A stretch of DNA of 64,000 bases. Source: Botryllus schlosseri. Taxonomy: Eukaryota. Below, in pieces: positions 5,391 through 63,049 of this stretch; position 1 is the first letter of the stretch, and each line of letters begins with the position of its first letter. The notes under the pieces are model-generated. The model was given only the letters and a program-made list of their open reading frames with translations. It searched no databases and was not told the DNA's origin. Position numbers and translations under genes: made by a program. The stretch is taken from assembly GCA_051294905.1 (NCBI GenBank), contig CM119372.1, positions 40,116,001 to 40,180,000 on the forward strand, read 5' to 3'.

Positions 5391-5566
5391 GGATTCACCA
5401 GCACCGCCATGATCACTACATGCCTCACGGACCCCATTCCCCGTACCCACCCTACGGGCAAGCGAGCCATCACCCCCACCCGCACCAAAACAAGGATATG
5501 GTCAAGCCGCCCTACTCCTACATCGCGCTCATAGCGATGGCCATCAACGACGCCACAGACAAAAAG
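5391..5566 (+). CDS. FoxC: Forkhead box C transcription factor, first visible exon (an upstream exon may exist; in-exon ATG at 5420)
   Basis: Acceptor TTTTCAG ends at 5390. Encodes MPHGPHSPYPPYGQASHHPHPHQNKDMVKPPYSYIALIAMAINDATDKK, with KDMVKPPYSY characteristic of FoxC. GT donor at 5567, phase 0. Confidence 0.92.
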
Positions 5567-6789
5567 GTTCGCCGCATTTTTACGTAATAATAAGCAATCA
5601 GACGCGTACAGACTATTGCGTTTTCATAACTCGGAACTAGACGTAGAACTAGAACTAACAACCTTTAAAAATTCGCAACTGATTAACTTAAACAGAACTA
5701 ATTAGACTCAATTCCGAAGCAACTGATTCATTTTTATTTTATCGGAATCCTAGCGACATTCCACATGAACATCAGTACAAGTTTGAAATGGGAGGGGTTT
5801 CCACCCCGAAAACCCAGCCCTATGGTTACACATTGTTAGTAGTGATGATTCTGAGCCGGCAGTGAATGCAAGAACATCGCGCAACAGAACACCGGTATCA
5901 CGATTCACGCCAAACGATGACACATCCGCTCATAGACACAATATTCCACTTTCGTTTAGTTCGCTATTTCAAAGTCCTTACACGGTACAATCACTGTTAG
6001 ACTTTGTTATATTGTCCACTAGGGACTTATAGTTGTATTAATGAACAGGCATGGTGTAAAAGGCCTCAGTTTACCGAGAAGCACCCCCTCCCTCCAATAC
6101 ATACGTACATGACACATGCTTTTTGGTAGTGGAGCAACTAAATAATTTGTGAAATCCGCAATTAGGTCTGGAACTAGAACTACTCTATTTCCAAAATTTT
6201 CAACTAAAGCTAGACCGTATCAAAAAGTTAGTAGGTAGTTGACCGTCAACTAAATATATTGCTGGTTTGTACAAGGCTGTAAACAATGGAAGTAGCAGAA
6301 TAGCAAGGAGTAATGATTCCGGGAGTAAAATTGTCAGTGGATTCTAAGCAGTCGGTGTTGCTACGCTATATAATTCTGAGTTAGGTTCTGTTACCGTGTA
6401 CCATCTTTAGGGACTGAATACACTGACTATTTTCGCTAAGAGTGAAGTGTCGCAATTAATCTGACGAATTTCAACATCAATCTTCACAGCCAACGCAAAC
6501 GACAATAGAAATGTGTGAAATAATCTAGCAAATCTATAGTCAGTTATCATGATACAGGAACTTTCTCAGACGGTTGTTATGACAATTTCACTCATAAGAC
6601 TAATCAAAAAGCTAATTTCTACTTTTCAAAATCCGAATTACCAAATGTAATGTGGTATAGAAGTAGAAGTAATTGAAAACATAACCTCTTGAGAATGTAG
6701 TGTAAGTAGGCTTTTAGTATTCGGGAGAAGTAGAAGTACATCTTTACTGACCACCTCTGGAATTGGCCATACACGTCGAAGCACTATGA

Positions 6790-7244: not shown

Positions 7245-7770
7245 TAATTTTAGCAAAAAGGGTGCGTTTTCACTCCCAAAAAGTGGTACACGAACACAGA
7301 ACCTAAATCTGAATGATACCGCGGTTACAAATCCTATGTTCCTACGTACATGCATAATGTAGATTAAAATGTTGCGTTTTATTTATACCGTGGTGTAAAT
7401 CTGATGTAGGTTCGGATTTCGTGTACCACGGATATATTTTCACACCGTATATCACGGGTGGTAAACAGGTGTGAATACACACTCTTTCTAAGAGTGTATT
7501 AGATTTCACTATAGCGTGGGGTGAAATAGAGTAAACGACATTTTATGGTACGAACTTGTGCTTTCACACCATTCCAATGGGCGAAAATGAGTCAAAAATA
7601 TCAATCCTTTTGTAGATATATCACAGGGATTTGTATATGACCCCCTGTTATGGATTTATCGGGGTGGTACACGTAAACTAAACCCACTACACCACTAGGA
7701 TATATCTCCATATCAATTGTTGTATTGACTCATTTTCACTTATTGGGAAAGTGTGCGTACCCTAGAATAA
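7245..7770. mobile_element. Remnant of a CACT-terminated (EnSpm/CACTA-like) non-autonomous element in a FoxC intron
   Basis: CTCTTTCTAAGAGTG|TA at about 7496 and the reverse complement of about 7250-7310 resemble the right end of the 40197-50709 element; CACACC/GGGGTG subterminal motifs. Confidence 0.55.
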
Positions 7771-7939
7771 CTGTTTTGGGCTACAGTCGCCAATATCTCA
7801 TTCATGTGTAGATCACGAATAAAGCTTGGTATAGTCTAAATAAATTCTACTGATTATGATGAGTCACGGCTGAACGACCCAAAACCAAAGCATAGCCAAC
7901 TAGTTATATGCCGATGCCTGAACGAATATTTGCCGGCAG

Positions 7940-8057
7940 GGACGACCGCAAACCTGGCAAAGGAAGCTTCTGGACCCTGGACCCCGATTCCTACAACATG
8001 TTCGAAAACGGGAGCTACCTCAGACGAAGAAAGCGATTCAAGAAAGAGAAAAAAGAG
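7940..8057 (+). CDS. FoxC: FoxC exon (forkhead wings and basic C-terminal tail)
   Basis: CAG acceptor ends at 7939; (R)[39 protein letters not shown]; donor GTGAGA at 8058. Phase is compatible with the previous exon. Confidence 0.95.
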
Positions 8058-8692
8058 GTGAGATTATATTAACGGTTGGTAGGATATGCACTTTTTTATC
8101 ACCTGAAACATAATAATGCCAGTTCTGCCCCACATAAAGATGTTTTAGTATTTTTCGGACTGTACTTATCTCATTGCATTTTGTGATGATGCTGCGGGTT
8201 GAGCGTGTCATGTCATTTCCACTGACGTGCGTAGTCGGACAACTACAAAAGTTTCAGCCTGTTCGATTTTGGTTAGAATTGGAATCACTGAATTCGCAAA
8301 ACCTTGGAAATTGAACTCAATTTCGAATTGTAAAGAGATAAAACAAAAATCAAGTTCAGTGCATATCAAATCAGAGTTATTTCTCAGAATCATGAAAAAA
8401 GCAAATATCTCTACATCAAGCTGGCCTCGTCTCGCACTACACAGTTATTCTGTAGCATTTTCAGGAAAATCAGAAATTAGATTACAATTAGGATTAGAGC
8501 ATAGAAACATTTCACAAACTAAATAATAATTAAATTACTAGCATTTCGCTCTAATTACAGAACTTCATCGAGTTATGTGGTTGCACAAGTCGGCTTGATG
8601 GTGCATGCTTTGGATGGCGTTTTTTTAGCAATCCAGGTTTATGGGCTACTAAAGTGTAAAATAGTATCTAAACCATAATTGTGGTTGATAAG

Positions 8693-9460
8693 TAGGGCAG
8701 TTTTTTTTACCTAAAAAACGGAAGATTTTGACCTCAAAAATCAAAATTTTGACTATAAAATACGTAATTTTGACCAAATGTTGACCTAACGCATGCAAGT
8801 TCGGTGTTTCTTACATAATGTTAGAATTGTACTACTTATCTTCATTTCAGGTTGGAACTGTCTGTCCTTACGAAGTAGTTTGGCCTGAAAAAACTTTTTT
8901 GACTCAAAAACTGACAGATTTTTACCTGAAAAAAAATTATTTTGACGAAATCTGGCCCTATGAAGAATTCTAGTAGTTACATCACGTATTATGGTGGGAA
9001 AAATTAAAATTTGTTGTAGTACAACGAAAGATACTTTCCTACATTCTCAGTGAGAAAGTGTCTGTCCTTACTAAGTAGCTAAGCACTTGTTGGCTGACAA
9101 CACTGAAGTTGTGCGTACACTGCTGGCGACAAACCGTGTTGCTTCTTTCTGACAATGGTTTCTACATCACAATTTTTCATCATGCTTTTCTTGATATAAG
9201 AACTATTCAATGCCCACGCAGTCTTGCTTGAGTTAGGATATTGCGGTAATACGTTGAGCATAACACTATCGAATGTTAACATTCGATAATAACACCACGT
9301 TAACCTATTTGTTTATGATTCACAATGAGCAGACAAGGGGCTGTCGACAAAGGTAGGCCTATAAAGTAGGCTACAAGCTGTAAAATGATGAGTTCACCGA
9401 CAGTGCAAAATCTACGATACAAACGAAATGCAAGTAGCAAAAATTTTTTTAAACTCAAGT
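8693..9460 (-). mobile_element. Truncated hAT derivative, same family as 46238-47114
   Basis: Starts TAGGGCAGTTTTTTTTACC and is colinear with 46238-46990; peptide AQLQCCQPTSA on the minus strand. Confidence 0.8.
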
Positions 9461-9672
9461 CAGGTCTTAGTAACAAGGAGCGTATTATTTCATTTCACTA
9501 CTCACAGAAATCATTTCTCCCTGCTCAACTCGAATCATTGTTACTAGCCTTATTAATATATCTATCCATCTATCTTAAACCGATAGCGAATAATTATATA
9601 TATATATATAAAGGAAAATGTAAAGCAATATGAGCTATATACAATATAATAATATATAGATCAAAACTTCAG

Positions 9673-10359
9673 AAACGCGACAACACGGAAGATTTCGAAT
9701 TCACCAAAGATCCACAAAATTCCTCGAAAGAATCGTCTGAAATCGCGAACGAAGAAATTAGTCCCGAAAACAAAGCCGAGGATTTGCGAATGCGCCACAA
9801 CTCTGAGGAAAACCCGGATCCGGATCCAATTCCGCGCCATGAAGCTTTACCGGACACGGCGGTGCACGCGGCGAAGTACGCGGAAAATTCGCGCATGACG
9901 CGGTCACCTGCGTCCGACTCGTCTAATCATTGCGACGCGACGGGGGCGTCGTCCGAGATCGGGCGAGAGCGGGAAAACGTTTTTTCGGAGCAAACCGCAA
10001 ACCAAGACGAAGGGAGAGGTTTAATTTGCCGAAACCCTGATGTATTACCCCAAATCGCGACCCCGCCCCCAACCGCTGTCTCTACTAGCAACGGACTGTG
10101 TTGGTTTTCAGATGGCAGTTACGGAATCAACACCCCAGTTTCTTACCACCAAACGCAACCCCCTATATACCCATCCCATGAATTCTACCCCCCGAATCAA
10201 ACGTCGGTGCTTCAATCAGTTCACGAAGACGAAATCGCAATAGCGACGCACGGATATCAACTGCGATATTCCACCCCAGCGCCTCAGACCTACTACCACC
10301 AATACCAGACCATGCACAGGCACGGGAAATACTCGCCCTTCGAGTATCCCAAGTATTGA
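9673..10359 (+). CDS. FoxC: FoxC terminal coding exon
   Basis: Acceptor CTTCAG ends at 9672. Phase-0 open frame continues into ORF 9784-10359 and ends YSPFEYPKY*, reminiscent of the FoxC C-terminal YDC(S/T)K(F/Y). Confidence 0.8.
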   Translation, partial: KRDNTEDFEFTKDPQNSSKESSEIANEEISPENKAEDLRMRHNSEENPDPDPIPRHEALPDTAVHAAKYAENSRMTRSPASDSSNHCDATGASSEIGRERENVFSEQTANQDEGRGLICRNPDVLPQIATPPPTAVSTSNGLCWFSDGSYGINTPVSYHQTQPPIYPSHEFYPPNQTSVLQSVHEDEIAIATHGYQLRYSTPAPQTYYHQYQTMHRHGKYSPFEYPKY

Positions 10360-28990: not shown

Positions 28991-30941
28991 GTAACGTAGC
29001 CTACCTGATAAAGAGATCCAAAATGTGAATAACAACAGCAGCGGGTATAGAGAGCATTTTCTTCGCACACTGATAGGCGTTGCAATTCCACATTATACAA
29101 TACATCTAGGATTGGTCGCTATTGTGCTAAAGGGGCCAGTTTAGACGGATAATAAATACTATCTCTTCAAGTACCGGTATAAATTATTCGAAGCATAAAG
29201 CAACGACAATGCTGCCTATGCAAGTAGCTATCACATACCACAACTTAACGGAAAATAAATAACAGGTTAGGGAATGTATTTGCTCCGCATTACGTATTGG
29301 CCGTCGCTACTATATAATTCCTACAAGACAGTCAAGACCAGTGGTTCCCAAACTTTTTCGGTGTGAGGGCCAAATTTAGAATTTCAGAGTACGGTCGGGG
29401 CCGCAAGAATACTACGGCTATGAAACGGACCCAAACAGTCATCACGGCCATTTCGGAGTAGTTTGATTGCCCTGGCGATATTTCAAAACTGTACACTGTT
29501 TACCGCTACTTATCGGCTACATTGGGTGTCCGTTGAGTGAATCAGCTTTTCGCGCTTAAACGCGCGAAGTGCGATAAATTTTCTTTAGTTTCGTGACTGA
29601 ATCGGTCAATATGATCGGGAATTGCATGTAGGCTATTGCTATCAATTTTCATTCTGTCTCTGTTCACGTAATCTGATTTACCGGTAGAGCTGAGTGAGGT
29701 GTGTTTAAAAGGGTATAGGCCCCCTCAATAGTAATTAAACATCTCCGGGGGTATACCCGTTGGCAGGAACGTAACAGCACTTCGTCAGGACCCCGGGCTC
29801 CCGTAGGGTGATAAACTGACCCCGCATCACGTTGTTCGCTTTTGCCACGAAATTAAAGTTGTGCTGTTTAGTGAGACAGCGCGACGCGCGAATATTGCAA
29901 TAATTTATGATAAAATCGGTGAATAAGATCGGGAGTTGCATGGTTGTCCTCTTTGCCCAAGTAATCAGATTTACCGGTAGAGCTGAATGAGAGGTATCTT
30001 TGATACTGCAGACCCTGTAAAATTAAACATCTTCGGGCGGGCGGACCCCTAGGTATGACTTCTTTACATGATGTTATTTTGTGACCTCCTGTCTGCTATA
30101 TCAAAAAATGTAGAATTGCCCAAACCTACTAAACTGAAAGATCACACGATTTCAGATTGGTATCTCTTCACTGGCATATAATTTTCTTTCCTGCGGGATG
30201 GTACTTGTCTTGTGAGGTTTAGATTGCCAAGACAAGAACATTCGGTGCCAGTCATTTAGGCGCCTATATGGACAATTAAACCTTTCTCTATTTTGTTTAT
30301 ATAACGAAGTTTTTGATATTTCGAAGTTTTTGGTCAGCATAAAAGCAGTCCTTTACGGCCAAGGCTTTCTCGCTGCCGATCGTTCTGACACACTTCTTGG
30401 AGTCACATGTTACATGGCCTAAAATTTTATATGTCTTGGTGCATTGTGGTGCGGTCAAGGCAAACGCTGATGTGCCTATTTCTATAAATCTTGCGTATTT
30501 TTCTTAGGGAAGAGTACCCAATAATCAAGATATGTGGCGAATTGAAATCGCGCGGAGCGCTCAAAATTTTTGAAAAAGTTGCATAAATTTTCTAAAAATA
30601 CTCTATAATTTATGCTACTTCACGAAATAATTTTGGGCCCCCTTCGAGCTCGGCCCCCTCAATTGGGGGGTTTGAGGTGCGGCAGTTACGGCCCTTGTGG
30701 TGATTGTATAAGTGCTGATTACTGTAATTAGTTTACTTTTCTCTGTTCATTCCTTTCGTACCTCATTTGCTTATATCTGTGTTGTCGAGTGCATGTCCTA
30801 GTTCCGTGAAGTTGATTGTAGCCGAATTTCAGTTAATAAAAACCTAGAAAGCTGTCAAGCAGTTTCGTCTTCGTCTACCTACGCTTTCCTCGAAAGGTCA
30901 CCACAATTTTATTAACTGCTATTGACACGATCGACTCTGGA

Positions 30942-33900
30942 ATGGCTTTCTCTCAAGAGAAGTATATCCGCGTGCCGGTTCTAGATTTATTACCGAGCTC
31001 TCAAGACTCTTCGAAAGTATTCAACCACTTGGACAAAATGTTGTCGAGTTTCATATCGGCTGCAGAGTCTTCTTTGCCATCGACCAGCAGCACGGACACT
31101 GGACAAGAATCTAGCAGTGGCCGCCCCGGGGCAGTTCTCGATAAGTTGGCTATTTTGATTGGTTATATATCGCCATGCGTGTACGCTTTGATCGAAGATC
31201 ATGGCACGTTCGAATCTGCCATGGCACACCTAACCAAGTTATATCGGAAGAAAAAGAGCACCATATATGCTCGACATTTACTCGCAACTGCTAAGCAAGA
31301 CTCTGGTGAGACCGTCGCTGATTTCTCACAAAAGTTGATCGCTCTATCGCGTGATTGCAATTTTGAAACTGTTAATGCAGAAGTGCATAAAATGGAGGCC
31401 GTGCGAGATGCCCTAATTACTGGCTTGCGGTCCTCTGGCATTAGATTGCGTCTTCTCGAACATGATGAGTTAACACTCGAAAAAGCCATGCAGATAGCAG
31501 ACTCTCTTGAACGGGCGCAAGCGTTTTCCTCGTCCTATGTAATATCGCCTCCTACCGCTAACATGGTTCCGGGAAATCAGGAAATGCAGAAGACTTTACA
31601 TAGGCCTGATCAATCGCCTGTGTTGTCTTGCGGCTCTGAATTAGCTGCATTACAGAAGTCTCCTGAAAAAAAGAAGTGCTTATTTTGTGGCGGTTTCCAT
31701 ACGATGCTTCGCAAGTTTTGTCCAGCCCGAAACAGCGAATGCTCGAGATGTGGCCGACGGGGTCACTTTGCCAAAGTCTGCAAATTCAATTTGGCTTCGC
31801 TAGCCGGTGTACCCGGTTCTTTGAGGCGTTCGACGTTGGAAGTTTTTGTTGCTGAGAGGTTGGTCAAAGTACTTGTAGATTCGGGAGCATACGAATGCTA
31901 CATTAGCTCATCGTTCGCCAAAATTCTCAATCTCGTTCTTACTCCTCGGGATTACACTATTACCTTGGCATCAAAGTCATCTTCTGCTCGAGTAATTGGT
32001 CACGCATACGCGACACTTCGTATTGAAGATAAAGATTACGGCGCCACTCAATTATGCGTCGTTGATGAATTGTGCGCCGACGTAATTATCGGCTTGGAAT
32101 TCCTCAAACAGCATAAGAGAGTTATATTTGAATTCGGTGGGCCGAAGGGAGATCTCGTAATAGGACGCAAGCATTGTGCCGTAGCTGCCGCTAAAGTGAG
32201 TGATCCGCCTGAAATATTCAAGTTTGTCGATCCAGCTGTAAAGCCTGTAGCTGTGAAGTCGAGAAAGTACAGCTCAGAGGATCGATCTTTCGTACGGAGC
32301 GAGGTGTCGAAGCTCCTGGATGAAGGCGTTATAGAGAAGTCGGTATCTCCCTGCCGAGCTCAAGTTTTGGTAACCAAGGACCCTCGACATAAGAAAAGGT
32401 TAGTGATTGATTACTCGCGGACGATAAATCGACACACCCCTTTGGATGCTTATCCACTACCAAAAATTGATGATATTGTCAATGAAGTTGCAAAAGGTGT
32501 CGTTTATAGCACGATCGATCTCAAGTCTGCTTATCACCAGGTGTCTCTCTCTGCGGCCGACCGACCCTTCACAGCTTTTGAAGCTGATGGCTGTCTGTAT
32601 CAATTTCGTCGCCTACCCTTCGGCATCACCAATGGGGTCGCTGCATTTCAGCGGTTCATTGATAAATTCATAGCGGACAATCACTTGAAAGGCACAATAG
32701 CTTACTTGGATAATGTAACTATATACGGAAGGAATCAGAAGGAGCACAATGAGAGGCTCTCTTCGTTCATGACCGCCGCTGATTCAACAGGTCTGACTCT
32801 AAATAAAAATAAATGTGCGTTCGGGGTTTCGAAGCTCTCACTGCTCGGCCATCTGATATCCCACAATGATATTCGACCGGATCCGGATCATTTGCGACCG
32901 TTAACGCAAATGCCGGCTCCAAGCGATACTCGTAGTCTGAAGCGCTGTTTGGGCATTAGGGCTCTTCAAAAATGACTTTTTTTCTCAAATCGTACTGGCT
33001 ACTTGATAAAATTGTTAGGTTACCTAATTTAAGCCTACACACAAAATTTGGTTCAATTCCAGCCAGTAACCGCTTTGCTACAAGAGAAGAAAGTTTCTAT
33101 TTATTATCTAAAAATAAATAATGAAAAATTTGAAATTTTTCTGTTCACCCCATGAAAGTGTTAGGCTGTCTATAGAAACGATCCTCACCAAATTTGGTTC
33201 AATTCCAACCAGTGGAAGCGGAGTTATTGCCGTCGAAAAATTCGGATTTGAATAAAATAGTATTTACGGTGACCGATTCTTTGCTTATTTATTATAGTTG
33301 TGCTCACCGTAAATACTATTTTATTCAAATCCAAATTTTTCGACGGCAATAACTTCGCTTCCACTGGTTGGAATTGAACCAAATTTGGTGAGGATCGTTT
33401 CTATAGACAGCCTAACACTTTCATGGGGTGAACAGAAAATTTTCAAATTTTTCATCATTTATTTTCATTTAATAAATAGAAACTTTCGTCTCCTGCAGCA
33501 AAGCGGTTACTGGCTGGAATTGAACCAAATTGTGTGTGTAGGCTTAAATTAGGTAACCTAACAATTTTATCAAGTAGCCAGTACGATTTGAGAAAAAAAG
33601 ACATTTTTGAAGAGCCCTATTGGGCATGTTTTCGTACTATTCAAAATGGATTCCGTCCTTTTCCGACAAAGTGAAGCCCCTGTGTGAAAATGTCGTGTTC
33701 CCCTTGCTTGAAAAACAGAGAAACGCGTTTGAAACGTTAAAACAGAATCTACTTCGCGCCTGTTTGAGCTGTGTCTATGATGACGAACCGTTTCAAGTTG
33801 AATGCGATGCTTCCGAAGTTGCGATCGCCTCTATTTTAAGCCAAAAAGGCAGGCCTGTTGCGTTCATGTCTCGAACGCTATCAAAATGCGAAATGAAATA

Positions 33901-35298
33901 CCCCGCTGTAGAAAAGGAAGCTTAGGCCATTGTCGAGTCTCTTCGAAAATGGGATTATCTCTTGAACCGAAATGAATTTAAATTGATAACGGACCAAAAG
34001 GCATTATCTTTCATATTTCGAAAAGACCATCCGAGTAAGATTAAAAATGCAAAGCTCACTCTGTGGAAACTCGAGTTAAGTCCGCTAAAGTATCAAATAA
34101 TTCACCGCCCTGGATCCGAGAATATCGGACCTGATACTCTGTCTCGGGTTTGTTGTTCGTCCCCAGGCCAGCCACACATGAGCCTTCAAGAGATCCATGA
34201 AGCGCTGAGTCACCCTGGGATTCGACGACTTGATCACTTCGTCCGATCCAAGAATCTACCTTTTTCAATGGAGGACGTTAAAAGAACTTGTGCTAAGTGT
34301 CAAATATGTGCTAAATTGAAACCTCGGTTCTTCATGTCTAATGAAACGAACAAGTTGATAAAAGCTACTCGACCATGGAAACGTATTAGCATCGATTTCA
34401 AAGGTCCCGTTGATGGACTCAGAAAGTTTGTACTTGTTATTATTGACGAATGCAGTCGCTTCCCATTTGCTTATCCTTGTTGCGACATGACGTCGTCAAC
34501 GGTAGTCAATTGTCTCTCATCCTTGTTTTCGCTTGTCGGTGTACCGGAATATGTACACAGTGACAGGGGTGCCTCATTTCTATCTAAGGAAATCACCGAT
34601 TTCTTGACACGCAAGCGTATTGCCACCAGCAAGTCGACTCCTTATAACCCCACAGGCAATTCGCAATGCGAGAGGCTTAATCAGACTTTGTGGAAATCCG
34701 TCAAGTTGCTTTTGGAAAGTCGGAGATTGCCGGAGAGACATTGGGAATCGGTTTTGCCGGATGCTCTGCATTCCATCCGGTCGCTCTTATGCAGGGCAAC
34801 TAATTGTTCTCCTCATGACAGGTTCTTCAAGTTTGAAAGGAGATCCATGTTGGGCGACTCCATCCCCGACTGGCTTCTTCATGGCGGCACCGTACTTCTA
34901 CGAAATTTTGTGCGGAACAAAGGCGACCCCCTCGTTAATGAGGTAGAAATATTGGATGCCAACCCTAAATACGCCTTAATACGTTACAGAAACGGCGTAG
35001 AATCAACGGTTTCCGTTAAAGATCTCGCACCCTACCCTGTTTCTACAAAGTCTTCTGAGGCGCTTGAAAGAAAGGAAAAAGAGTTTTCCTCAGTCTGCGA
35101 TACAACGGAACCGTCATCCGATGAACTTACGACGTCGTCCAGCAGCGAAAAACATGGCGTTACTTGTAAAACATTTTCTCCGTGTCGCGACGAAGTAGTG
35201 GAGCCCAGTAGCAGCGTATAGATGTCGGGGAACCTCCACTGCGCCGATCCACGCGCATAAGGCGCGCTCCCGAACGTTACGGGCAAGGGACCTCGTAA
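30942..35298 (+). pseudogene. Single-frame gag-pol polyprotein, disrupted
   Basis: Zn knuckle CSRCGRRGHFAKVC, protease LVDSGA, RT (DLKSAYHQ, LPFGI, YLDN), RNase H (ECDAS), integrase HHCC and D-D-E. Lesions: MITE at 32957-33619, in-frame TAG at 33923-33925, and a late frameshift (terminal LRRSTRIRRAPERY motif is in another frame, stop at 35296-35298). Confidence 0.95.
32957..33619. mobile_element. Foldback hAT-type MITE inserted in pol
   Basis: Near-perfect palindrome with ~310-bp arms, termini TAGGGCTCTTCAAAAATG; 8-bp TSD TTGGGCAT. Removing it restores the frame CLGMFSYYSKW. Confidence 0.97.
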
Positions 35299-36083: not shown

Positions 36084-37371
36084 CAGAGGTGGTCAAAGTA
36101 GTCAATAAATCTACTCAAGTAGGAGTAGAAGTAGCGATGAAAAAATCTACTCAAGTACGAGTAGAAATACTTCTTCAATTAGCCACCTCAGACTACTTGA
36201 AGTAGAAGTATATTTGACTGGCTTTAAATCTACTCAAGTAAGTAAGTAGTTTTGAAAACAGTCTTAATTAGTTCACATGGACTGTCAGAACCTGCGAATT
36301 GAGGTATGCGAATGGTGCAGAGAGCTTGATTCGTATCGATGCATCCCATGAGGTATCATCGACAGAATAAGCGTTCTTTCGCATCATCGGATGCAAATTA
36401 TAGTACTGATATTAAAATGCGATACTAACCCTTTGTTTACTAGAAGACGCCGTTTTAGAGAATATCATGGCATGGCGCCCTACCCCATATTATAGCCGCT
36501 ATGTTTAGGCGAAGAGCAATACGTAGAAGTTGTATAGGCTACGGTTTCATCACTTTGCGCGATTAGTACGTTAATAACACATATTGTGGAGCGTAAATGT
36601 TATATTTAGTGTAGCTTTATTTTCGGAAAATAGAGACATTACTACACTTGCTTTTATGCTTCAACATGTATGTTTTGCAGACAAAAGAACTGAAAGTAAT
36701 TAGAACTCAAAGTATGATACTCGCATAGTCGCATCGCCATTGAAAGTGAAATACAAATACCACTTGTTAAAAGAGGAAAATATATTTCATGTCTTCTGTC
36801 CATAAAGCTTCAAAGGAGATCTGCTAAAACAGGTGCAACGTTCAAAAAAGCTGGATATTCCACATGACATGCTAAGACGCGTAATGGGCTGCCAGATTCC
36901 GATATGATAGGTGATTGCTACGAAACGGTAGTTTCAAACGTTATGGTGGGCCATATTTACTGTGATGAAATATTTGATATTGGCGACAATGCGGTGTGAG
37001 CGGAACCAAGCAATCCGGTATCTAAATTATATTCACTGATACTTTCGTGAAAACATATTTGTCTCTCCATAACTACTGTGCGCGAAGCGCAACAAAATTT
37101 CCGGGCTTTACTTGACTTTTATGAATATTAAATGTTGGTACTCCGTGAAAACAGCCCCGAAATTCCTCAGGCTATCTTTCGTATTGGGGGATTAGACTAC
37201 TCCTACTTGACAAACTGAAAATAGCGAAAAGTAAGTAAGTAGATCACAAAATATTACGAAGTAGAAGTAGAAGTAGAGAAAATCAGATCTACTTGAGTAA
37301 GTAGCAGAAGTAGAGGAAAACTACTTTAGTACTTCCAAAAAGTAGAAGTACTTCGTTACTGACCACCTCTG
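36084..37371. mobile_element. hAT-type non-autonomous element with AGTAGA subterminal repeats
   Basis: TIR CAGAGGTGGTCA/TGACCACCTCTG; TSD TTGAAGCA; related ends at about 6660-6758 and 52860-53110. Confidence 0.9.
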
Positions 37372-39362
37372 TTGAAGCAGCAGTGACGTAACGCTAGCAG
37401 TCTATACTCACAACTTTCCTGCAATTCTATAATTAAAACTACAGAGGTCAAGCCAAGCAAGAGTATTTTACACTTATAAATTTTATTTTTTGTCATAAAT
37501 CGATTTCTTAATATATTTTGGGAGCCACAAGAAGGCTTATCTGGGGGCCGCGCTTGGGAATCACTGGTCAAGACTGTTGTATTCCGAAATCGATAGCGCA
37601 TTTCACTGTGCTGCGATTGTCCAATTGTTAGCGAATAGTGCATGAGGCAAATTCGTTTGTGCCTTACCTGGCCATTGTTTCTCTGCGATGGCATTGTTTG
37701 TAATAAAGCCGAATGCCACCTTCCTTGGCGATTTTGAGGGGGGTCTCGTGGTCTGACACTGTTATTATTTGGATTTCCGGAATCAGTGTGACGATAGCAT
37801 TTGATTGATACCAGTTGTAATGAATTCCGAGCTTTTTATGATGAATTGCATTGTCGCAGGTGAGGCATGACCCGCCCGTGCCTCACCTATGCAGCAACTC
37901 TCCTTTCGCGCTGTATTTTTGAATAATGATTATGAAAATTGATGATGTTGTGTGAAAAAATGCTCAAATTTAGTTATTTATGGACATCGATGTAAAATAT
38001 CAATAACCATCGACTCATGGAGGGTTTCACAATTTTCAGTGATTCGCCCTGGCGACAGGTGAGGCACTGCCGCACCTGCCTCATTGGACCGCACGTCACT
38101 GTGGAACGTGCATGCCCGTGTCCAATGCCCATTCATGTCAGCGAATGCCTCCTTCATGGATGCTATTGCTATCTCTGGGGCCGTATCAGCTAGTGAAGAA
38201 TAGTGATGTTGGGCACGAGAGAATGGCTTATTTTGAACAACAACAACAATATTTTTAATGGAAATCAATTTCAGCATTTTAAATGCCTTCCGAAATCACG
38301 AATCAGGTCACGGGCCGCGTGTTGGTGATCCCTGTTCTAATTGGTCTTATTTGACACCTGCAGTTTGTAATTCTCCAAAAAAATTCAGTTCGAAACGCAA
38401 CTAGATTTGTAAAGATCGTTTAACCTTTCATTTGGGTTCACGGTTCACTTAAACTCGCCTTATCTGTCTAGCGCGCGACTACCACCACCGCGAGATGGAG
38501 CTATAAAGTCGCAATCGTTACTTACGCTGGTAGTTCCTAATTTCGGTGATTAAAATACATTCATACAGATTCACAGGAAGTGTTGAATTGAATTGTGATC
38601 GTAGAAGATCAACCACTCTGACTTATCATCGACATGGTTATCCAATTCGAGAACAAGACTTTGGGCGTCGATAATAACGTTGGATTAGCAATAAAGTCGA
38701 TTATCGCGTTCGTCGCGATTTATCAACCCAGGAAACCGGTTGATCACAGCGCATGTAGTTAGTGTTAATCACATGATTTAACAAACTACATCTAAAAAAC
38801 TGCGTGTTAGATACTATATCTAAAAATACTGCGTACGCTGCTTACCTTTCCTACGCCCAAATATTTTCGATAATGTGCCGACTGTCTCCTAAATAATGGC
38901 TTCACTAAACAATCAACGAATTATATGTACCCGTCATTGCAGAGCGATATCAATATTCCGTTATCCGTTTCTCAGCTGTACCGTATGAATTGGACACGAC
39001 TATCATTTCGCGATGATGATAATTCTGTGCAACTTTGCATTTATTCATAGGTTAAATGCCGTAATAAATGATCAAACTGAAATACAAAAGAACAGTTACA
39101 TCGATTGGCCTAATCCCTATTGCTCCAACAACTCACAAGACGTGGGTGTTAATATATACATGCACGCACGTCGCACAATCACAACAACAAGAAGACGAGA
39201 TCGCTCATGCGTTTAGGGAGACTACTAGAGAGAGAGATAGTAGTAAGAGATAATCACCCCCCCCCAACTCCTAACGAAATCAACGTGCATTGAGTGAGGA
39301 GTTCAAAATACAGCGTGTAGAGAACGTCCAACCAAATACTCTAATGGCGATTGGAGCGGGAA

Positions 39363-39975
39363 TCAACATAAAATTTGTGCCCCAATAACGTAGTCCTTGT
39401 GCCATACTGGCGGAGTAACATTTCTGCCCGAGCGCTGGCGTCTGTCATTAGACGGTGCGGCAACACTAGTGTCGTCGATCGGTACTTCAACTGGTAGATG
39501 ATCTTCTGCACTCAATTCGGTGGATCTCAGCGCGCCAGGGTCTGCCTCATTTGACTGTCCACTTAGAGCGGGTGGCGAAACGACTTGAGGTGACATGGCT
39601 GTGCCGGGAGACGAGACCGTTGGCTGAAAAGGTGTGTGCTTTTGGTTCTGGAAGTACGGCTCAACCTTACGCAGAAATTTCCTGTTGCGCAGCGTCAATC
39701 TGCCGGAACCGTCCACTTTCACGAGGTACTGGTCATGGTCCCGGCACTGAACCACAGTGCCGGTTCTGTCCCAGCGAAGGGGATAACGACCGTTTTGGTT
39801 TTGAATGCGACAGACATCACCTTCAAGAAGCGGTGATAATGGCTTAGTGTTCAACGACAGAGATTCCAGCTGCTTCGCAAATCTGGTACGTAACGTGTGC
39901 TCGCGACTCTGCCAGAGGTTCCTCCTTAATGGCCTGATATTGCGCTGGGTGAAAACTGGGACCCATGCTTTGATT
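39363..39975 (-). pseudogene. Gypsy integrase C-terminal fragment
   Basis: LSPLLEGDVCRIQNQ...WDRTGTVV...QYLVKVDGSGRLTLRNRKFLR and terminal RSGRNVTPPVWHKDY, typical of Gypsy integrase C-termini; fused directly to the LTR. Confidence 0.85.
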
Positions 39976-41134
39976 GGCAACTTTGCATTTATTCATAGGT
40001 TAAATACCGTAATAAATGATCAAACTGAAATACAAAGGAACAGTCGCATCGACTAGCCTAATCCCTATTGCTCCAACAACTCACAAAACGTGGGTGTTAA
40101 TATATACATATACATGCACGCACGTCGCACAATCACAACAACAAGAAGACGAGATCGCTCATGCGTTTAGGGAGACTATTAGACAGAGAGATAGTACACT
40201 GTAAACGAAAATGGTGTGTTTTCGCAATTCACACCCTAGCGTAGGGTGTGTTTTGGGTCATCACACCTATTGGGTACTAAATTTGTCATTTACATCTAAG
40301 CTATTGGTGGAAATGAGCCGAACTCACCCCTACACACATATACCATAAGATATACACCCCAAGCATTGGCATTTGGGGTGAATTGTTAAAGATTACACCT
40401 TTTGTCAGACAAATATGAAGTTTGGGATTCAATCCGCGCTAGCCGCTTCCACAAAACTTGACTGTTGAAGTTTCAAGTCTGTGTCGCTCAGATTCCTGGT
40501 TAAGCAGGCAGGGGTGCGGCAAGTCTGGATTCTTGTTAAAAATTCAGTCGAATCACTGTACTGATCATTGTATGGGCACTTGAGAACTTCTCTGCTGTGT
40601 CTAACTGTAGGTCGTGTAGGACATATTCTCTTTAGGGTTGAATTATCCACAGAAAATGCGTGTTTTCGCCCACTTTATTGTTGTCCATGTCTTTAAGGCT
40701 TCTTGGGTAGGCTTCGGCAATGTTCCATTGTTCAGTTTTTATGGATTTAACCCGGTTCGATCAAGTAAATTCGCCTACGCATATAGTTTCAGCTTCAGTG
40801 ACAAATAAGCATTCGTTGTATAACATTCGTGTGCTACATTGACATGAATGAATGATAGCTAAGTCCGCAATATCATATTGTAATTCACATTTATCGTGCA
40901 CTGCGGTACTCGTACTTTGGCTGAAATTTCACCCGGTCTACTATAGTGTGACCGATGTATCTCAAGTGTGTCGCAAAAATACGACACATTATGAAGTTGT
41001 CACGATACTGGTTTATAATTTCTTTCATGTCACGTCAAATGCACAATTGTACATTGTACGTAGCCTATATGTACAAAATATATCGGGCCTATTCCGCACA
41101 GCATTAGTGTATAACCACAATATAATGCAGGTTA

Positions 41135-52404: not shown

Positions 52405-52729
52405 TTATTTAAAGTCAGAATCGTCATCGAATCTTATGCGAAACTTCATCTGCGAATAACGCAGCTGTTTGTGGGATAAACCATCATACCACCAGATTCC
52501 TTGGTCGCCTGTTTTGTTGAAGTTTCCATTCAGATTGCTATACCCGCATTCTCCATACCACCAGCCCCCTTCGTAAGTGCGAGCGCAGTGCCAACCAGTG
52601 CCGGGGTCAGCGTCTTTCGTTGAAAAAGCGCGATTGTTGTACGTTGGCAAACCATTGCCGGACGCATTTCCGGAGAACTCGCCTGCTTGCAGTCTGTACT
52701 TCGAGGAAGCAGATGAGACTCGGAAATAC
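52405..52729 (-). CDS. Terminal exon of a fibrinogen-related domain (FReD) protein
   Basis: YFRVSSASSKYRLQAGEFSGNA...AFSTKDAD...CARTYEGGWWYGECGYSNLNG...GIWW...SQMKFR; candidate acceptor ATTATCCAG at about 52730. Upstream exons not found. Confidence 0.8.
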
Positions 52730-54118
52730 CTGGATAATGAGAATTTGAAGACCTTCTTGGAGGTACACAACTTCAATTCTATATTGAAAATGGTAGTGAA
52801 CGTGTTGAAATGGCATGTAACGTGAATTTCGAGATTTCGCGATATATGCCACAGGGACCGGGGTGGTCAAAGTAGCAATCGCCGATATTCAAGTAGAATT
52901 AGAAGTAACTGAGTAAATTTATACCCGAGTACAACTAGGAGTAGCGATTTACAAGTAAGGCGAAATATTCTGGGACTGATTTTCCCTAAAAACGAAAACG
53001 GTCAAGTAGAAGTAGTCTAAAACCATAACCACTTAAGTAATTAATGCAAGAATGCGAACCTACTTGAGTCTTTGGCAAATAATAAGTACTTCTTTACCGA
53101 CCATCTCTGGTCAAGTAGGACTGAAATTGAGACTTTAAAGAAAGATCAGAAGAAAATTAGGCTGAGACAGATCATTTCGTTTTGCATGCCACAAAAGCCC
53201 ATGGCCACGCTGAACTGCTTAGCCAATTCCCTGTGTGTCTGTAGTGGCTTACATGAAATGGAATTGACGAATGCGACAACTTAAAGGAGGACTGCGCTTT
53301 AAAAATGATGTGGTCTCAAATTGAAGGCAAAAACGAACAAAATTTTTTGGCCGCAACCATTTCCTTCAGAACGCCACCGTAATGGAGCTGCAATTTATTG
53401 AAATTTCTACAAGACCTTCACGCTCCAGCTGCCGCGGCTGCTTAACCCGTTGCATGGTACGATGTCTTCATCGTCGCGCTTGCTCGACGCGATAAGGGAG
53501 TCACGCACAGAACGAACTTTGGACATATTACCTTCATAACATCGGCTGACAATTATCTAAAATTCGCTCTCTGACTGCCTCATTATTTCGTCTCGATATT
53601 GCCTTACTGCGACCCTGCTGTAGACTGACTATATATGATGGCTATGACTGGTTGGATCGGTCTCTTGAATCTATAGAAAATGATCCACCGCAATCAATAA
53701 CTTGTCAGAGATTTTCCTCACTAGATATTGCTCAACTGAAGTCTTTTAAGACAGAGCTGAATCACATTCTGTCTGCAGCAATGCGTTAGAGACTGATGAT
53801 CGTGGATATGTATTCCACGTACTTATATATTCTAAGAGCTCTAGTAATGGAAATTACTAACTGAGACAAGTCTGATATCACTATCGTGGAAATGTCTTCC
53901 ACGTATACACCTGTATTCTATGAGTGATCTAGAAATGTAAATCACAAACGGTACAGACAGAGAGACATTTCATTGCTTCGTACAAAATCAACAAATATCA
54001 CTGGAAATTATGGTGTAACTTGTAAAAGGTCTTATTATTACTCGTCGCCAACACAGAATTGGTGTGATACAGTGCATTCATTTTACCATAGGATAGATAT
54101 AGTGTGCAAGACTGCAAC

Positions 54119-56708: not shown

Positions 56709-57585
56709 CTGCAACCAGGGCTTTGGAGCAGCCGTAAATTTGCATTGCTCCAGCTCCGGAGCTTTCTTCTCTCATACATTAGCTCCGGAGCAGCATTATT
56801 GCCCCTGCTCCGGCTCCAGCTCCGGCTCTGAAAACTATCGAAGGTGTCTGTCTATATCAGGGGTGTGCAACCCGCGGTCTGCGGGCCATATGTGGCCCAC
56901 GAGAAGGTTTTGAGTAGCCCACGAGCTAATTTCCCATTATATTATCGAAATTCTGTTATATTATCGAAATTGAATTGCTCAGATTGTGAACTTGCAAGGC
57001 CAACCAAAAATATAATTAATATGGCCGGGATGTTGATGACTAAAATGTCAGTTCCGACGCATTGGCAGATCCAGGGTGAAGCAGTCACATTTTTAATAAA
57101 TCGTCGTACATTACAATAAACTAAAAAAGTAGTAAAATTTTTCTTCACGCTTCGCGTGTTTAATTGTCACGCGATTTCTTTCTCTGTAGCCTACCCCACA
57201 CTGAAAATGAAAAAACGCCTGATTTAGCCGATTGAGTCTAACTATAGAGTATGACTGGAGTGACGACTCGATTGTTCTCCCATTGTTAGCCGGCAGAATG
57301 GTCACGGTCAGATGGCTGCACCCAAAACAGGATCGCTCAGTGCTTGTTTCTATGGCGTTCAAGGGGATTCGTCGTGTAATTCTTGAAGCTGCGTCGGATT
57401 TAGTTAGACAGTTCAACATTTAGGTAGCGGTGGCGAGTCGTTATGACTAGTGAATAATGCCGTGTATCCTCTGTTATATTTTTCGCCAGAATTAGATCAT
57501 ACTTCGTCACGCATAGAAGTCGGTATCATTGCTGATTCGCCGCATCACTTTGGCCTTTGGGGATGACTGGGAGGGACTAACTGAA

Positions 57586-58505
57586 ATGGAAATTGAAGAA
57601 TGTTTCGAAGGACTCAATAACTGGAAAGGTGTGTTTTGTGAGGAATGCGAAGCATCCTTTCCTAATGTGAAAGCTTTGAAGAAACATTACAAAAATCATA
57701 AAGTTCTCACCAGTAATTGGAATATATCTGAGGATGCTGTAATTGCTGTTTTGAAGAGGGCTTGTGTAAATAGCAAAAAATACTTTGAATGCGCGCCATC
57801 ATTCGAGGAACTAGACATGACCAAAGCTGTTCCATTGGTGGAAAAACTCCATTCTGAATATTGTAAACTTGGTGTTGACGGATTTTATCAACATTACTCG
57901 AACATCCTGCCATCAAGCTAACAAGTTTCTGGGTTTGCCACAATTGCCAGCTTCAGCATTGCTTTTGAAGATTTTTGGTTCTCTCGTCTGCGGTAAAGAG
58001 CAGCATACAATCATAGATTGGAGGAGTCAACAGCAAGGAATATGGTAAGTAAATAGCCTATACTTTTCCTTTCCATGGAAAAACTTTGACGTGTTTTTAG
58101 ACATACTTGAATATATTTGGTGGAGTGCTTTTGGAAGCCATTTCTAAGCAAGCCAACGAAGCAAAGGCCACATGCCTAACAACTGCAGCGCCATCGGGAA
58201 ACCTCATTAAAGTGATGCAGAAGAAAGACGGTGGATTGAAGAGCCCGTCTAAATAGTTTCATGGCACGGTTCTCCGCTTTTATGTTATCCACAGTAAAGA
58301 AATGGCAAAACCCCTGAAAAAGATACATTTTTTCAGGGTAGTTGAGGCAATTCAATGCGATCCATTCGATAACAAATTGATTCATACTGTATCCCTTCAA
58401 TCTGTTTCAGACCTAAATGAGGTTGAGGATGTCATGGACAAGGCAATGAAACACTTGAATAACATCTGTTCTCACAATTCTCCAAATGTTTGCGACATAG
58501 CTTGA
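57586..58505 (+). pseudogene. C2H2 zinc finger plus P-transposase C-terminal-like domain, two exons, frameshifted
   Basis: FCEECEASFPNVKALKKHYKNH; intron 58045-58100 (GTAAGT...TTTTTAG); then ILEYI/GGVLL and NLIKVMQKKDGGLKSPS, resembling the YIAGYV and RGGLxxPS motifs of P/THAP9 transposase C-termini. Confidence 0.65.
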
Positions 58506-58889
58506 AAACAATGCTATTTTAGCACCATTTTCTATACGTTAAAACCTCTTGTTTCAATCATGACGCTGTTGAAAGTCTTTTTTGTTATTGTTGAAATTGT
58601 ATAAGCCATGGTATTTCTTTACTAATCTGACAATTGCTACTGCTATCACTGTGGGGTTTACTATAATGTAAAGCAGAGGTGTCAAAGATACGGGCCGCAT
58701 CCGGCCCGCCAGACAATTTCATCCTGCCAGCGAAGCAATTCCGAGTAGATTGAAATATTCTTATATTTTCCAGCATATCTGTTACAAATGTTGAGATTTT
58801 TGGCAGGAAATACTTCCATGTTCATAGGTCCCATTATAACCACCCGACTATGTGGTTCCACTCTAGTTACCACTAGTAACAAGTCGGTG

Positions 58890-59291
58890 AAATTTACATA
58901 CAATTTCAAGAAGGTTAAAAGTGAACACTATGTTCAGAGTTTCATACAAATATGGACCAAGAATATGGTCAAGCTAGCAATTCGGCTTTTGAATGGTGTT
59001 TGGAATCAGTATCTTTCAGAGTCCTAACACAAGATGTTCTGGAAGCAGCATTTGGATCTTTGGTAACTCGAGTTGACATTCATTAATATTATTCACGGAT
59101 GTTAAACGTTAACAGCGGTCTTCGATGACATACAGCAGGAATCCAGATATTAGCCAAGTCAGTTACTCAGTAAATGCCTTATGCCAGCGTAAGGTTATAA
59201 AGAGAGGGAGAGGTGCCAATACAACATAGTCAATGGTGATCAAAATCCTTGGACAAAAGTCGGCTAGGAACCCATGACCAAGAAAAGATGA
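58890..59291 (+). pseudogene. P-type transposase 3' remnant
   Basis: FRVLTQDVLEAAFGSL at 59015-59062 (QDxLExxFG catalytic-glutamate motif), then RNPDISQVSYSVNAL and a terminal PWTKV..EPMTKKR*. Confidence 0.7.
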
Positions 59292-59679
59292 AGCGAATGT
59301 AGTTTCTGGTAGTGTTAGTATGGTATTTTTTCTCTCTGTGTCAAATGCTGCCTATCCACATTGAGATTCCCTACCTAAAAAAGGAAACCAATGCGTCGAA
59401 ACCTTGACGTGGTGCATCGGCTTTCTACTAATGTCGACTGGCAGAGGTCTTCCAAGCGAATTCCAGGGTATTCTTGTATTTTTGGCAATGACAACGAGTT
59501 CCATTCAAGTGCGATTTTGCATACTTCCAAGGAGTAAGCTCTGACTATTGTGAATCGAGATCAAGCAGAACATTGACATTACACAAGGCTCTGGTTCTAG
59601 TCATACTCAAGTTTCTGCGGTTATCGGACAGGCACACGAGACTACAAGACTGCTGCGATATTATTTGTTATATTCATAC

Positions 59680-60655
59680 CAGTGTTGGGATGACTCGAGT
59701 CATGACTTGACTCGAGTCAGACTCGAGTCACCTTTTTCGTATGACTTGACTTGACTCGAGTCACTTTGCTAAAATGACTTGACTTGACTTGACTCGGCGT
59801 ATCAGAAATGTGGATTGACTCGTGACTCGGAGCAAAATTCACGAGTCAATTTCAAGTCATCAAGTAATCGGTGTCGATAAAAATCCCTGTATCTTGCATA
59901 TATGGTCGGACTGTTCGCTAAATGCTGGTGTAACCCGTGAGAGTGACCAATCTTTCAGTGATTGTGCGCTTTACTGAACCTCCATTGTTCTCGCACACAT
60001 AAATTGACTGCAAACGGAGTGATCGAAATTTACAGATTACGTTGTCGTAAACTAATACAGTAAAGTAATTTAATAGCAAAATGTCTATTTCTGTTCTCTG
60101 TTCTTTCCTGAACTAAAGCTCTTGTTTTATTGAAATTGAATTCAAATACAGTTGATATAGTCCTCAACCATTAACGTAGGCTTGAATTGTATCATATCAA
60201 TTTGTAAATGCATAATGTATTGCATCTTTTCAATTCGTTTCTTTATTCTCTCTTTTGCCTGGTAACTATAAACTGAGGCTGTTCAATCACTTACGTAGTT
60301 TAGCAGTTCTACGTATATATGAGCGATTCAGCGCCTTATTGCGCTTATATTTAACTTATATTCGCTCATTGGTTCAGAATCAATGACCGCTCAATCTGCA
60401 TTTTAGACAGCTAGCAAAATGCAATGACGTAATCATGCCTCATACTTAAAAAAGGCAACTTGACTTGAATTGTGACTTGACTCGTGACTTGACTTGACTT
60501 GACTCGACTTGACTCGAGTCACCTCCAAAAACCGAGTGACTTGACTTGACTCGAGTCACTTTCGAAAATCGATTGACTTGACTTGACTCGAGTCAAAATG
60601 TGCAATGACTCGAGATGACTCGTGACTCGAAGGTAGTGACTTGATCCCAACACTG
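59680..60655. mobile_element. hAT-type element with GACTT/GACTC subterminal arrays
   Basis: TIR CAGTGTTGGGAT/ATCCCAACACTG; TSD ATTCATAC. Confidence 0.93.
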
Positions 60656-60950
60656 ATTCATACTCGAATTTCTGCAGTTAATTTAGGATATATTTGCAAT
60701 CAAAGCTATTGTGAACTGCATATCGATATAGTTCAAGATCTTTCCACTTGTTCACTCTGTAGTATTCTTCAGTCGTCCTTTCCATGAATTCATTCATTCA
60801 TTCATTTCAATAGCCAATGCACATGCACTGCACACGAACCAGATATTCTATCTACCTTCTGTCATTATATTTATATACGTAGCAAACTCTATAAAGGATC
60901 AAAGTCACAATATCACATCAATCTCGTGAGAAATGTAACATAGGCTACAC

Positions 60951-62166
60951 CAGGGGTGGGCAAACTTTTGAGCTCGTGGGCCGCATTCAACATCAGAATT
61001 CATTCGCGGGCCGCACTATAGAAAATGGGATTATGAACCAAAACGCAATATTGGTATATGATTATATAGTGAGGACATGGAGATAATATATGTGTTTATT
61101 TAAAACAAACCAAACATTGCTTTGATGATATCGTACACGCGAGATTTCATTATAGGCTGGTCGACCTCAATAACCATTTAACCAATTATCAAAACTATAG
61201 AGAGGAAGATCGGTTATCCCGATTCTTGGAACAGGATTGAAATTTAAAACTGTGAGCAGCGATCTGTTCATAGATTTACTCATTTCCCTTTTGGTTCAGT
61301 TCCAGTACACACAATGCTCACAGAAACTAATATATGGTCACTCTGCCAACGAAACCTGGACATGGAAATGGCCTTACATGCTAGCTTCAAACACGCTTAT
61401 ATACTATGTGTAGATAAAATATAAATGCTCCAATTCTACGCATACAGAGAACGAATTTACCTAAGACACGCGCGAATCGGTTTTTATAAGCACATCACTG
61501 AAATAATTAAAACTTGAGTGGCCAATCTAAATCCCACTCGTGATCCGAATTATGTCAATCTCGTTCAGGATTTCTGTGATGTTTAGCAGTTGAAACCTTT
61601 CAAACCCTGTGGGCCTTGAGATCGGGCTGTCGCACCAGAAATTAAACATAAAAAGGAATATAGAAAATATCTACCTTAGAACAGTGGTTATCAATATTTT
61701 TAAGACACGCCCCCCCCCCCTTATGATGGTGAAAGATTTCGCGCCCCTCATCGTCATATCACAAAACGCTACCAGGTTGCTAACAAACATAACGGATAGT
61801 TTGATGACATGGTAGGTTACGGCTATGGACGAAAGATTTTTAAATATGAAATTCAGGGTAAATACAGAGCAAAAATTATGAAATTGGTTTTAAATCGCGC
61901 CGAACGCGAAAAATTTTTTCAGTTGAGCTCGGCTTTGCACCCCACTTTTGATGCTTTCACGCCCCCAGTTTGAGAACCACTGTCTTAGAACTATCACGGT
62001 GAAATAAGAAACTATAAGAAATAGCTTAATCAAGTCCATGCATTATTTCGATTTTTAGTACGCATTTTATCAATATTTAAAAAAAGTTTCTTTAGACTCT
62101 CGCGGGCCGCACAGAACGGTGTTGCGGGCCGCATGCGTCCCGCGGGCCGTAGTTTGCCCACCCCTG
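60951..62166. mobile_element. hAT (Charlie-like) element inserted in the right TIR of the P-like element
   Basis: TIR CAGGGGTGGGCAAAC/GTTTGCCCACCCCTG; TSD GGCTACAC. Confidence 0.93.
61682..61982. mobile_element. hAT MITE nested in 60951-62166
   Basis: TIR CAGTGGTT(A/C)TCAA; TSD CCTTAGAA vs TCTTAGAA. Confidence 0.85.
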
Positions 62167-63049
62167 GGCTACACGGTAATATTCACTAGTCATAACGACT
62201 CGCCACCGCTACCTAAATGTTGAACTGTCTAACTAAATCCGACGCAACTTCGAGAAATACATGACGAATCGCCCTGAACGCCACAGAAACAAGCGCAGAG
62301 CGATCCTGTTTTGGGTGCAGCCATCTGACCGTGACCATTCTGCCGGCTAACAATGGGAGAACAATCGAGTCGTCACTCCAGTCATACTCTGTAGTCTAAC
62401 TATATTAGCAATTACGAGAGAAAGTATATTCGCGTTTGCGCTCGCAGAAAGATCGCCAACGATGAAATGTAGGCACAAAATGATTGTCGTATATTAGCGG
62501 AAATCTCCGATATCGATATGTCCAGATGCCGAATAGTCCTGTCCTTGCACACTGAGCCCAGCGGGCGGTATACAGTCGACCCGCAATATACCCAAGCGGG
62601 CCAAGTAATAATAATGTTACCTTTGAAAATTTTACGTGCCTGGCGCGGCTAGTGGGCAACGCACTCGTTCGTCAATTTCATGTGGCCCTTTAGCCGAAAA
62701 GGTTGGCCACCTCTGGTCTATTTAGATTACTAATTTACCCGTAAGTTAGTTATCTATGGTAATCTAGATTCTGTCAGCCGTCAGTAACATCGGATGCAGC
62801 AACGAAGACATAGGTGCCACCGTGCCGGCTTGTGACGACATAATGAGTACTTGTCAATTGTCGATAACATCATAGTTGCACTAGAACGCACCATACTCCG
62901 TGCCATTGCTGTGTACACTGTACAGCATCAAAATTCTGATGCGGCGTTTTAACACTGGCACTGTACTCGTTAACAGCCCTACAGTTCACTTCAATCTTTA
63001 AATGTGCGATATATTATTCAACTCTAACATATTCAGTCCCTAGAAACTA

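Follow-up and report, generated by a model that had tools for sequence, protein, structure and literature searches.

The P transposase is, to our knowledge, the only GTP-dependent transposase of its class, and elements of the P superfamily typically have 5'-CA termini, Galileo having long inverted ends as well. In Harbinger and RAG1/RAG2-type elements the transposase is accompanied by an unrelated accessory second protein. In the Drosophila P enzyme (87-kDa; PDB 6P5A/6PE2), the C-terminal domain (CTD) is attached by a flexible linker and touches both transposon and target DNA, and a 66-kDa form, lacking the C-terminal part, binds P DNA and represses (PMC7776569). Here we analyse a window of 64,000 nucleotides from Botryllus schlosseri (assembly GCA_051294905.1, contig CM119372.1, forward-strand positions 40,116,001 to 40,180,000), by which we mean the whole stretch of DNA examined. 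It contains a decayed P-type element of 5.15 kb (57243-62393) whose core gene (gene 2) ends early, while a separate spliced gene upstream (gene 1) likely encodes the missing CTD; in intact elements the two proteins likely assemble. We give this reading as a whole a probability of about 65%.

The element resembles Drosophila P in its RNase H helix with a QDxLE-type motif, in its inverted ends and in a probable CTD with YIxG and GGL motifs, the last link running via a family profile. It differs in having this CTD on a separate gene, together with a C2H2 finger and a middle domain of ~110 aa, in a core that stops before the CTD, in ends of ~248 nt instead of 31 and in a target duplication of 7 instead of 8 bp. 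The fly 66-kDa repressor arises by intron retention of one gene, whereas here it is the gene that is truncated, the tail probably being the product of another. Like Galileo, the element has long inverted ends. A 7-bp duplication is also typical of Galileo and 1360, but these are described as intronless, with no second gene mentioned in the text consulted (PMC3698922). Kolobok (PMC9587614) likewise carries a transposase (Kol0) and a second protein (KolX) within one element, yet that second protein is an unrelated accessory fold and not a domain carried inside the transposase of relatives.

Two genes within one pair of ends

The original prediction, made from the letters of the window, placed the element within a single pair of inverted repeats and target duplications, and this is borne out. 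The ends (57241-57469 and 62167-62395) match over 229 nt at 94% identity, or over 248 nt at 92.7% after removal of a miniature inverted-repeat transposable element (MITE) nested in the right arm. They are bordered by a perfect 7-bp duplication, GTCTAAC, at 57236-57242 and 62394-62400, and contigs with the empty site exist; the inverted repeats and 7-8-bp target duplication of the P superfamily are present. Three later insertions, each with an 8-bp duplication, interrupt the element, which without them measures 2943 nt, ~290 nt thereof being truncated MITE. Thousands of contig pieces align to it at 80-99% identity, so it belongs to a multi-copy family. Its features are as follows.

57236-57242, unstranded: left target-site duplication GTCTAAC, 7 bp (from sequence and empty-site contigs)
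57243-57490, plus: left terminal inverted repeat, ~248 nt, starting TATAGAG
57586-58044, plus: gene 1 exon 1, encoding the C2H2 finger (57637-57699) and the helical middle domain, with one frameshift near 57906 and another near 58014
58045-58100, plus: gene 1 intron of 56 nt (GT..AG), removed from transcripts of related copies
58101-58510, plus: gene 1 exon 2, resembling the P C-terminal domain (YIGG, GGLKSPS, basic tail)
58674-58960, plus: hAT-like MITE, truncated, 5' part only, adjoining the deletion of most of gene 2
58961-59062, plus: remaining exon sequence of gene 2, carrying the catalytic Glu in TQDVLEAAFG; base missing at 59000
59063-59115, plus: predicted gene 2 intron, GT..AG, 53 nt
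59116-59291, plus: gene 2 last exon, with RNP motif and W-x-x-V-x-x-E-P-x-x-K-K-R end; base missing at 59228
59680-60655, unstranded: nested insertion, its ends rich in GACTC, flanked by an 8-bp duplication; other copies lack it
60951-62166, unstranded: nested hAT-like MITE with 8-bp duplication, within the right inverted repeat, containing a further MITE at ~61682-61983
62175-62393, minus: right terminal inverted repeat, outer part (the inner ~29 nt being 60922-60950)
62394-62400, unstranded: right target-site duplication GTCTAAC, 7 bp

Comparison with known cores supports gene 2 as the 3' remnant of a short P-type catalytic core. Read through with X at the breaks, the remnant comprises 90 residues. 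Against a profile built from two short cores, those of the metagenome loci L071 and L073 introduced below, it scored 35.2 bits (best of 2000 shuffles 6.8), and 28.5 bits on a profile of seven one-piece cores (best of 2000 shuffles 9.3), two values not strictly comparable between profiles of two and seven sequences. From QDVLE to the protein end gene 2 has 69 residues, against 71 and 73 in L071 and L073 and 235-273 in L074, L083 and L087. A W..V..EP..K end is common to gene 2 and both short cores, and over 84 positions gene 2 shares 27 and 24 identities with these and 13-23 with one-piece cores. The core tree has no starred branch and leaves gene 2 unplaced. Members of the profiles carry Pfam TNP-like domains; the gene 2 fragments alone match no Pfam family. 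The C-terminal region of the P-type RNase H domain, with the third catalytic residue, is present in gene 2, and the region for the first two catalytic Asp, DxxH, the GTP-binding insertion and the THAP domain is deleted in the studied copy. In canonical P and THAP9 transposases the CTD follows the catalytic Glu within one polypeptide; in gene 2 it does not. The right arm of the element yielded no CTD with local profiles (best 0.4 bits, shuffles up to 5.9) and no THAP or core remnant on either strand (local profiles; Pfam in 12 frames).

Gene 2 had been drawn at 58890-59291. Its TQDVLEAAFG and RNP motifs stand, but contigs that carry other copies of the MITE match over 58691-58960 only and diverge beyond it, so 58890 to about 58960 is MITE and gene 2 starts near 58961. 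The stop, predicted about 250 nt after the catalytic Glu, was measured at 247 nt; base 59291 is C in most other copies, where the stop follows ~7 codons further. As originally predicted, the gene lacks its 5' part beside a MITE at 58674; this MITE is truncated and adjoins the deletion. No reads were seen spliced across the predicted gene 2 intron. RNA depth over gene 2 is 0-5, compared with peaks of 62 and 134 over gene 1, a difference that copy number and library bias could explain and that we do not count as proof. After gene 2, at 59300-59679, contig depth is greater than over the gene 2 exons, and no Pfam match occurs in six frames.

RNA supports gene 1 as a separate, spliced transcript that ends at a stop of its own, rather than as part of a conventional transposase gene. 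The evidence consists of raw reads, found in three of four runs from two studies and belonging to related copies. The 58045-58100 intron is spliced in 10, 4 and 10 reads (24 in total, in the three runs), and since spliced reads fall into the dominant direction class of the single-cell runs, that class is sense. The stop of the studied copy at 58254 reads CAG in 31/31, 28/28 and 53/54 reads (112 of 113). Reads continue beyond the gene's own stop into the 3' untranslated region (UTR), where 58511-58636 is covered at a depth of 33-57 in two single-cell runs. When translated, loose read ends at 58479-58511 give a basic tail, FAK...EKQKK and then LRDSLKK plus stop, two pieces that are presumably joined; the tail resembles the RSFSFAK...KALRK ends of the stand-alone family described below. 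No joint between gene 1 and gene 2 is found among the five RNA joints listed. Splicing of both parts into one transposase, the outcome that would have spoken against the original prediction, was not seen among these joints.

The limits first given for gene 1 (57586-58505) have to be shifted, while its finger, YI/GG and GGLKSPS hold. The related sequence P0001 (Logan, 94% identical) has exon 1 open with 17 extra N-terminal residues, so the true start is probably near 57528; the end in intact copies is probably near 58510, and the 56-nt intron lies between. That the gene is decayed proved correct: besides its two frameshifts, the studied copy has an extra base at 58116, the stop at 58254 and a short deletion at ~58480. 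The extra base interrupts YI/GG, but it is missing from 9/19, 12/14 and 21/21 RNA reads in three runs, and P0029 (ENA, 87% identical) runs from ILEYIGG to GGLKSPS in a single frame. The finger matches Pfam zf-C2H2_4 with E 8e-4, under the curated cut-off. GGLKSPS at 58230 and QDVLEAAFG at 59030 are the sole matches of their patterns in the window, and both patterns together appeared in 1 of 2000 shuffles of 57470-59682. A stretch of the gene 1 3' UTR (58511-58588) reads ...FNHDAVESLF, resembling a second catalytic-Glu helix; it scores 10.3 bits against 5.1 for the best of 900 shuffles (E ~0.2 against the window) and is chance or a vestige.

The stand-alone family and its relation to gene 1

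Relatives were found by scanning metagenome contigs with a degenerate YIxG...RGGL pattern. The scan gave 120 loci from 36 of the 64 parts of the collection; 37 were in frame and open, of which 26 were kept by eye as P-like and 11 dropped. Among those kept, 16 are one-piece or apparently one-piece transposases, such as L083 (935 aa, with THAP, helix-turn-helix, RNase H and GTP-binding domains), and 10 are stand-alone proteins, some of them near-duplicates. A C2H2 finger and a helical middle domain occur in all six stand-alone loci with the N-terminus on the contig (6/10). A zinc finger such as that of gene 1, to which the original prediction drew attention, is usual for the family. A profile of the stand-alone CTD (8 sequences, gene 1 excluded) has as its top PDB match 6P5A chain B (E 3.9e-8, 177,635 targets), the Drosophila P transposase CTD is also the top match of the one-piece CTD profile (E 8.2e-7), and the two profiles match each other with 98% probability. 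Judged by these profiles, the stand-alone finger-middle-CTD family is shown to be homologous to the Drosophila P CTD.

Two of the ten stand-alone loci, L071 and L073, lie on contigs long enough to show a core gene as well. Both are like our element in the W..V..EP..K end of a short core and probably in the finger-middle-CTD partner; the element differs in having both genes on the plus strand with the partner first, in the long branch of its partner and in the deletion of most of its core. In L071 and L073 core and partner genes are convergent, an order that is common among two-gene P elements but is not known to be required.

The link of gene 1 itself to this family is remote and moderate (P 1e-3 to 1e-5). 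Exon 2 matches the one-piece CTDs at 84% (P 7.8e-6, 114 columns), and the entire gene aligns in the same order with 242 columns of the stand-alone family (P 1.1e-4). With its finger removed, its score against that family is 31.3, the best of 60 shuffles reaching 19.9 and the reversed sequence 12.4. The score of the middle domain, a part not selected by the scan pattern, was reached by 10 of 3000 shuffles, and that of the CTD with its motifs held fixed by 6 of 3000. Weighing these comparisons against the contrary scores given below, we hold it to be very probable, though not established, that gene 1 is homologous to the P CTD, as had been proposed: the family match to 6P5A chain B carries the claim, with gene 1's own tie to the family being distant. 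We infer that gene 1 is a divergent member of the stand-alone family. Of the checks proposed earlier, profile comparison gave the 84% match of exon 2, while structure prediction gave models too poor to decide. For exon 1 alone (predicted local distance difference test, pLDDT, 55) the model placed 6P5A chain B 31st, with a Z of 3.7 that is not meaningful, and for the exon 2 model (23 rows, low pLDDT of 52) 6P5A fell outside the top 50. No Pfam P-family domain was matched in gene 1, no P match in a PDB sequence search with exon 2 and no usable feature match in the ESM Atlas for P0001 or P0029.

Other searches added little. A metagenome scan for close relatives confirmed none of 134 pattern matches, none of 15 loci from a motif scan of viral contigs was P-like, and neither exon 2 (longer proteins) nor a frame of gene 2 matched anything when databases were queried with them, which is weak evidence. 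A search with exon 1 returned one near-identical copy and otherwise mostly finger matches (24 hits). Locus L082 was considered as a tandem two-gene element and rejected, since it is probably a spliced one-piece gene; it had initially been included in the short-core profile, and the gene 2 test was redone without it. The gene occupies 7246-9684 and 5447-6067 of L082 (minus strand), and its likely intron lies right after a W..P.PKK motif, where short cores stop. This position suggests where the split may have arisen, L082 being a candidate intermediate.

As to the surroundings, the P element is itself nested in a hAT-like MITE (56859-62716, imperfect 8-bp duplication), the nesting being four levels deep. 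The MITE at 58674-58960 we take to be hAT-like from its CAGRGGTGTC end. The window is animal DNA, with forkhead-like and fibrinogen-like exons; presumed host exons are forkhead-like (~5480-5584, plus), low-complexity (9634-10356, plus) and fibrinogen-domain-like (52408-52866, minus). Two long open reading frames (30840-35218, plus; 37359-39992, minus) we take to resemble LTR-retrotransposon gag-pol and integrase.

Weighing the explanations

Several observations weigh against a core gene and a separate CTD gene of one P-type transposase. Both termini of the studied copy read TA (left end TATAGAG) and not CA, whereas zebrafish Pdre2 (PMC10983969) starts with CA (CATACC). The homologues were chosen by the same two motifs, so that motif-based scores are partly circular, and with the motifs masked 178 of 3000 shuffles did as well as gene 1. 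P0029 reached 10.8 bits on the pooled CTD profile (HMMER, E 0.04, 2362 targets), the finger-less gene 1 only 1.8 bits on the family hidden Markov model, matched by 25 of 2000 shuffles, and with hhalign its match to the profile of stand-alone CTDs is at 28%. A tree of the CTDs puts gene 1 on a long branch that falls outside the clade of stand-alone proteins (100/99), although its joining that clade is not rejected (p-AU 0.258). The RNA reads derive from copies other than the studied one, and end bias is probable in the single-cell libraries. Finally, both pairs with a visible core are convergent, and no intact tandem element was found in our searches.

The convergence of L071 and L073, the only informative relatives, lends some weight to a reading in which the element does have two genes but their tail-first order on one strand is secondary, an inversion or repair having flipped the 3' piece of the core in a convergent parent. 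The junction at the truncated MITE is indeed a rearranged spot. Yet local profiles and Pfam found no THAP or core remnant on either right-arm strand, a tandem parent that underwent one insertion and one deletion accounts for the copy without any inversion, and no strand-changing joint is present among the joints listed. We regard such a flip as possible but somewhat doubtful; it is in any case compatible with a split transposase. A different objection is that gene 2 was once a spliced one-piece transposase whose CTD exon has decayed within 59300-60950, gene 1 being an accessory or inhibitory CTD-like protein. The one-piece L082, with a likely intron at the same point, and GT sites beyond the gene 2 end would fit this, and since an intact divergent CTD scores just ~10 bits, a broken one could escape detection. 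The right-arm score below that of shuffles, the greater likeness of gene 2 to short cores and the mere ~670 nt left before the outer repeat make it unlikely.

Gene 1 might also be an unrelated captured zinc-finger gene with P-tail motifs by chance, as its weak HMMER scores and the want of a Pfam P-family or fold match could suggest. We hold this to be improbable, because finger, middle domain, both motifs and basic tail follow in family order and spacing, two motif-independent tests gave p ~0.002-0.003, and the gene lies within the same ends as a core without CTD. The position of both genes on one strand, tail first, would even allow a single circularly permuted transposase, finger, middle domain and CTD being joined by splicing to the core that follows; if the acceptor lay in the lost portion of gene 2, such a joint would appear only as a loose read end. 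Since reads pass the gene 1 stop well into the 3' UTR, and the main loose ends among those listed, at 58479-58511, agree with the C-terminus of gene 1 itself, this is very unlikely indeed.

A probable split P transposase and its meaning

We return to a short core and a probable, separately encoded tail, the elements of the original prediction of a split transposase; the two-component enzyme itself is a step further. As the fly CTD is flexibly linked, it could plausibly work in trans, and from this analogy we infer that core and partner may bind each other as one enzyme. A co-fold of the L073 core and partner with alignments not used scored 0.00, from which we draw no verdict. The gene 1 product would supply in trans the CTD contacts with transposon and target DNA, and finger and middle domain may bind DNA or dock on the core, replacing the covalent tether. 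Insertion of the MITE and an adjacent deletion would have removed most of the core gene; if, as reads suggest, the structure is common to other copies, the family would not be autonomous and would need core protein from elsewhere. No loose read end among those listed falls at the MITE start, ~40 reads per single-cell run cover 58663, and RNA also covers 58943-58964, with reads at 59000 differing from the studied copy. This is a hint that the MITE, and perhaps the deletion too, is common to the expressed copies.

A more speculative extension, which we consider rather unlikely, is a half-autonomous P family that went on multiplying after loss of its core and retained a tail-subunit gene that is open, spliced and expressed, the tail activating core-only transposases of other elements. 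By analogy with the fly 66-kDa form, such core-only transposases might be inert or repressive alone. If so, control of transposition would rest with the elements that provide the tail, and the tandem tail-first order would be a further arrangement within the split lineage.

The literature searched yielded no account of P elements with two genes, Repbase and most subscription papers lying outside the search; within it, this variant of the superfamily appears undescribed. New in this case are the tail-first order on one strand, which may stem from a rearrangement, and, from related copies, transcripts of the partner gene. The value of this dead copy lies in that RNA evidence, by which the partner gene is a real, spliced and independent transcript, and in the hint that partner-only elements exist. 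A natural split of core and tail would make the role of the tail testable by adding or omitting one plasmid, and such a split enzyme may offer a two-key design for controlled transposition.

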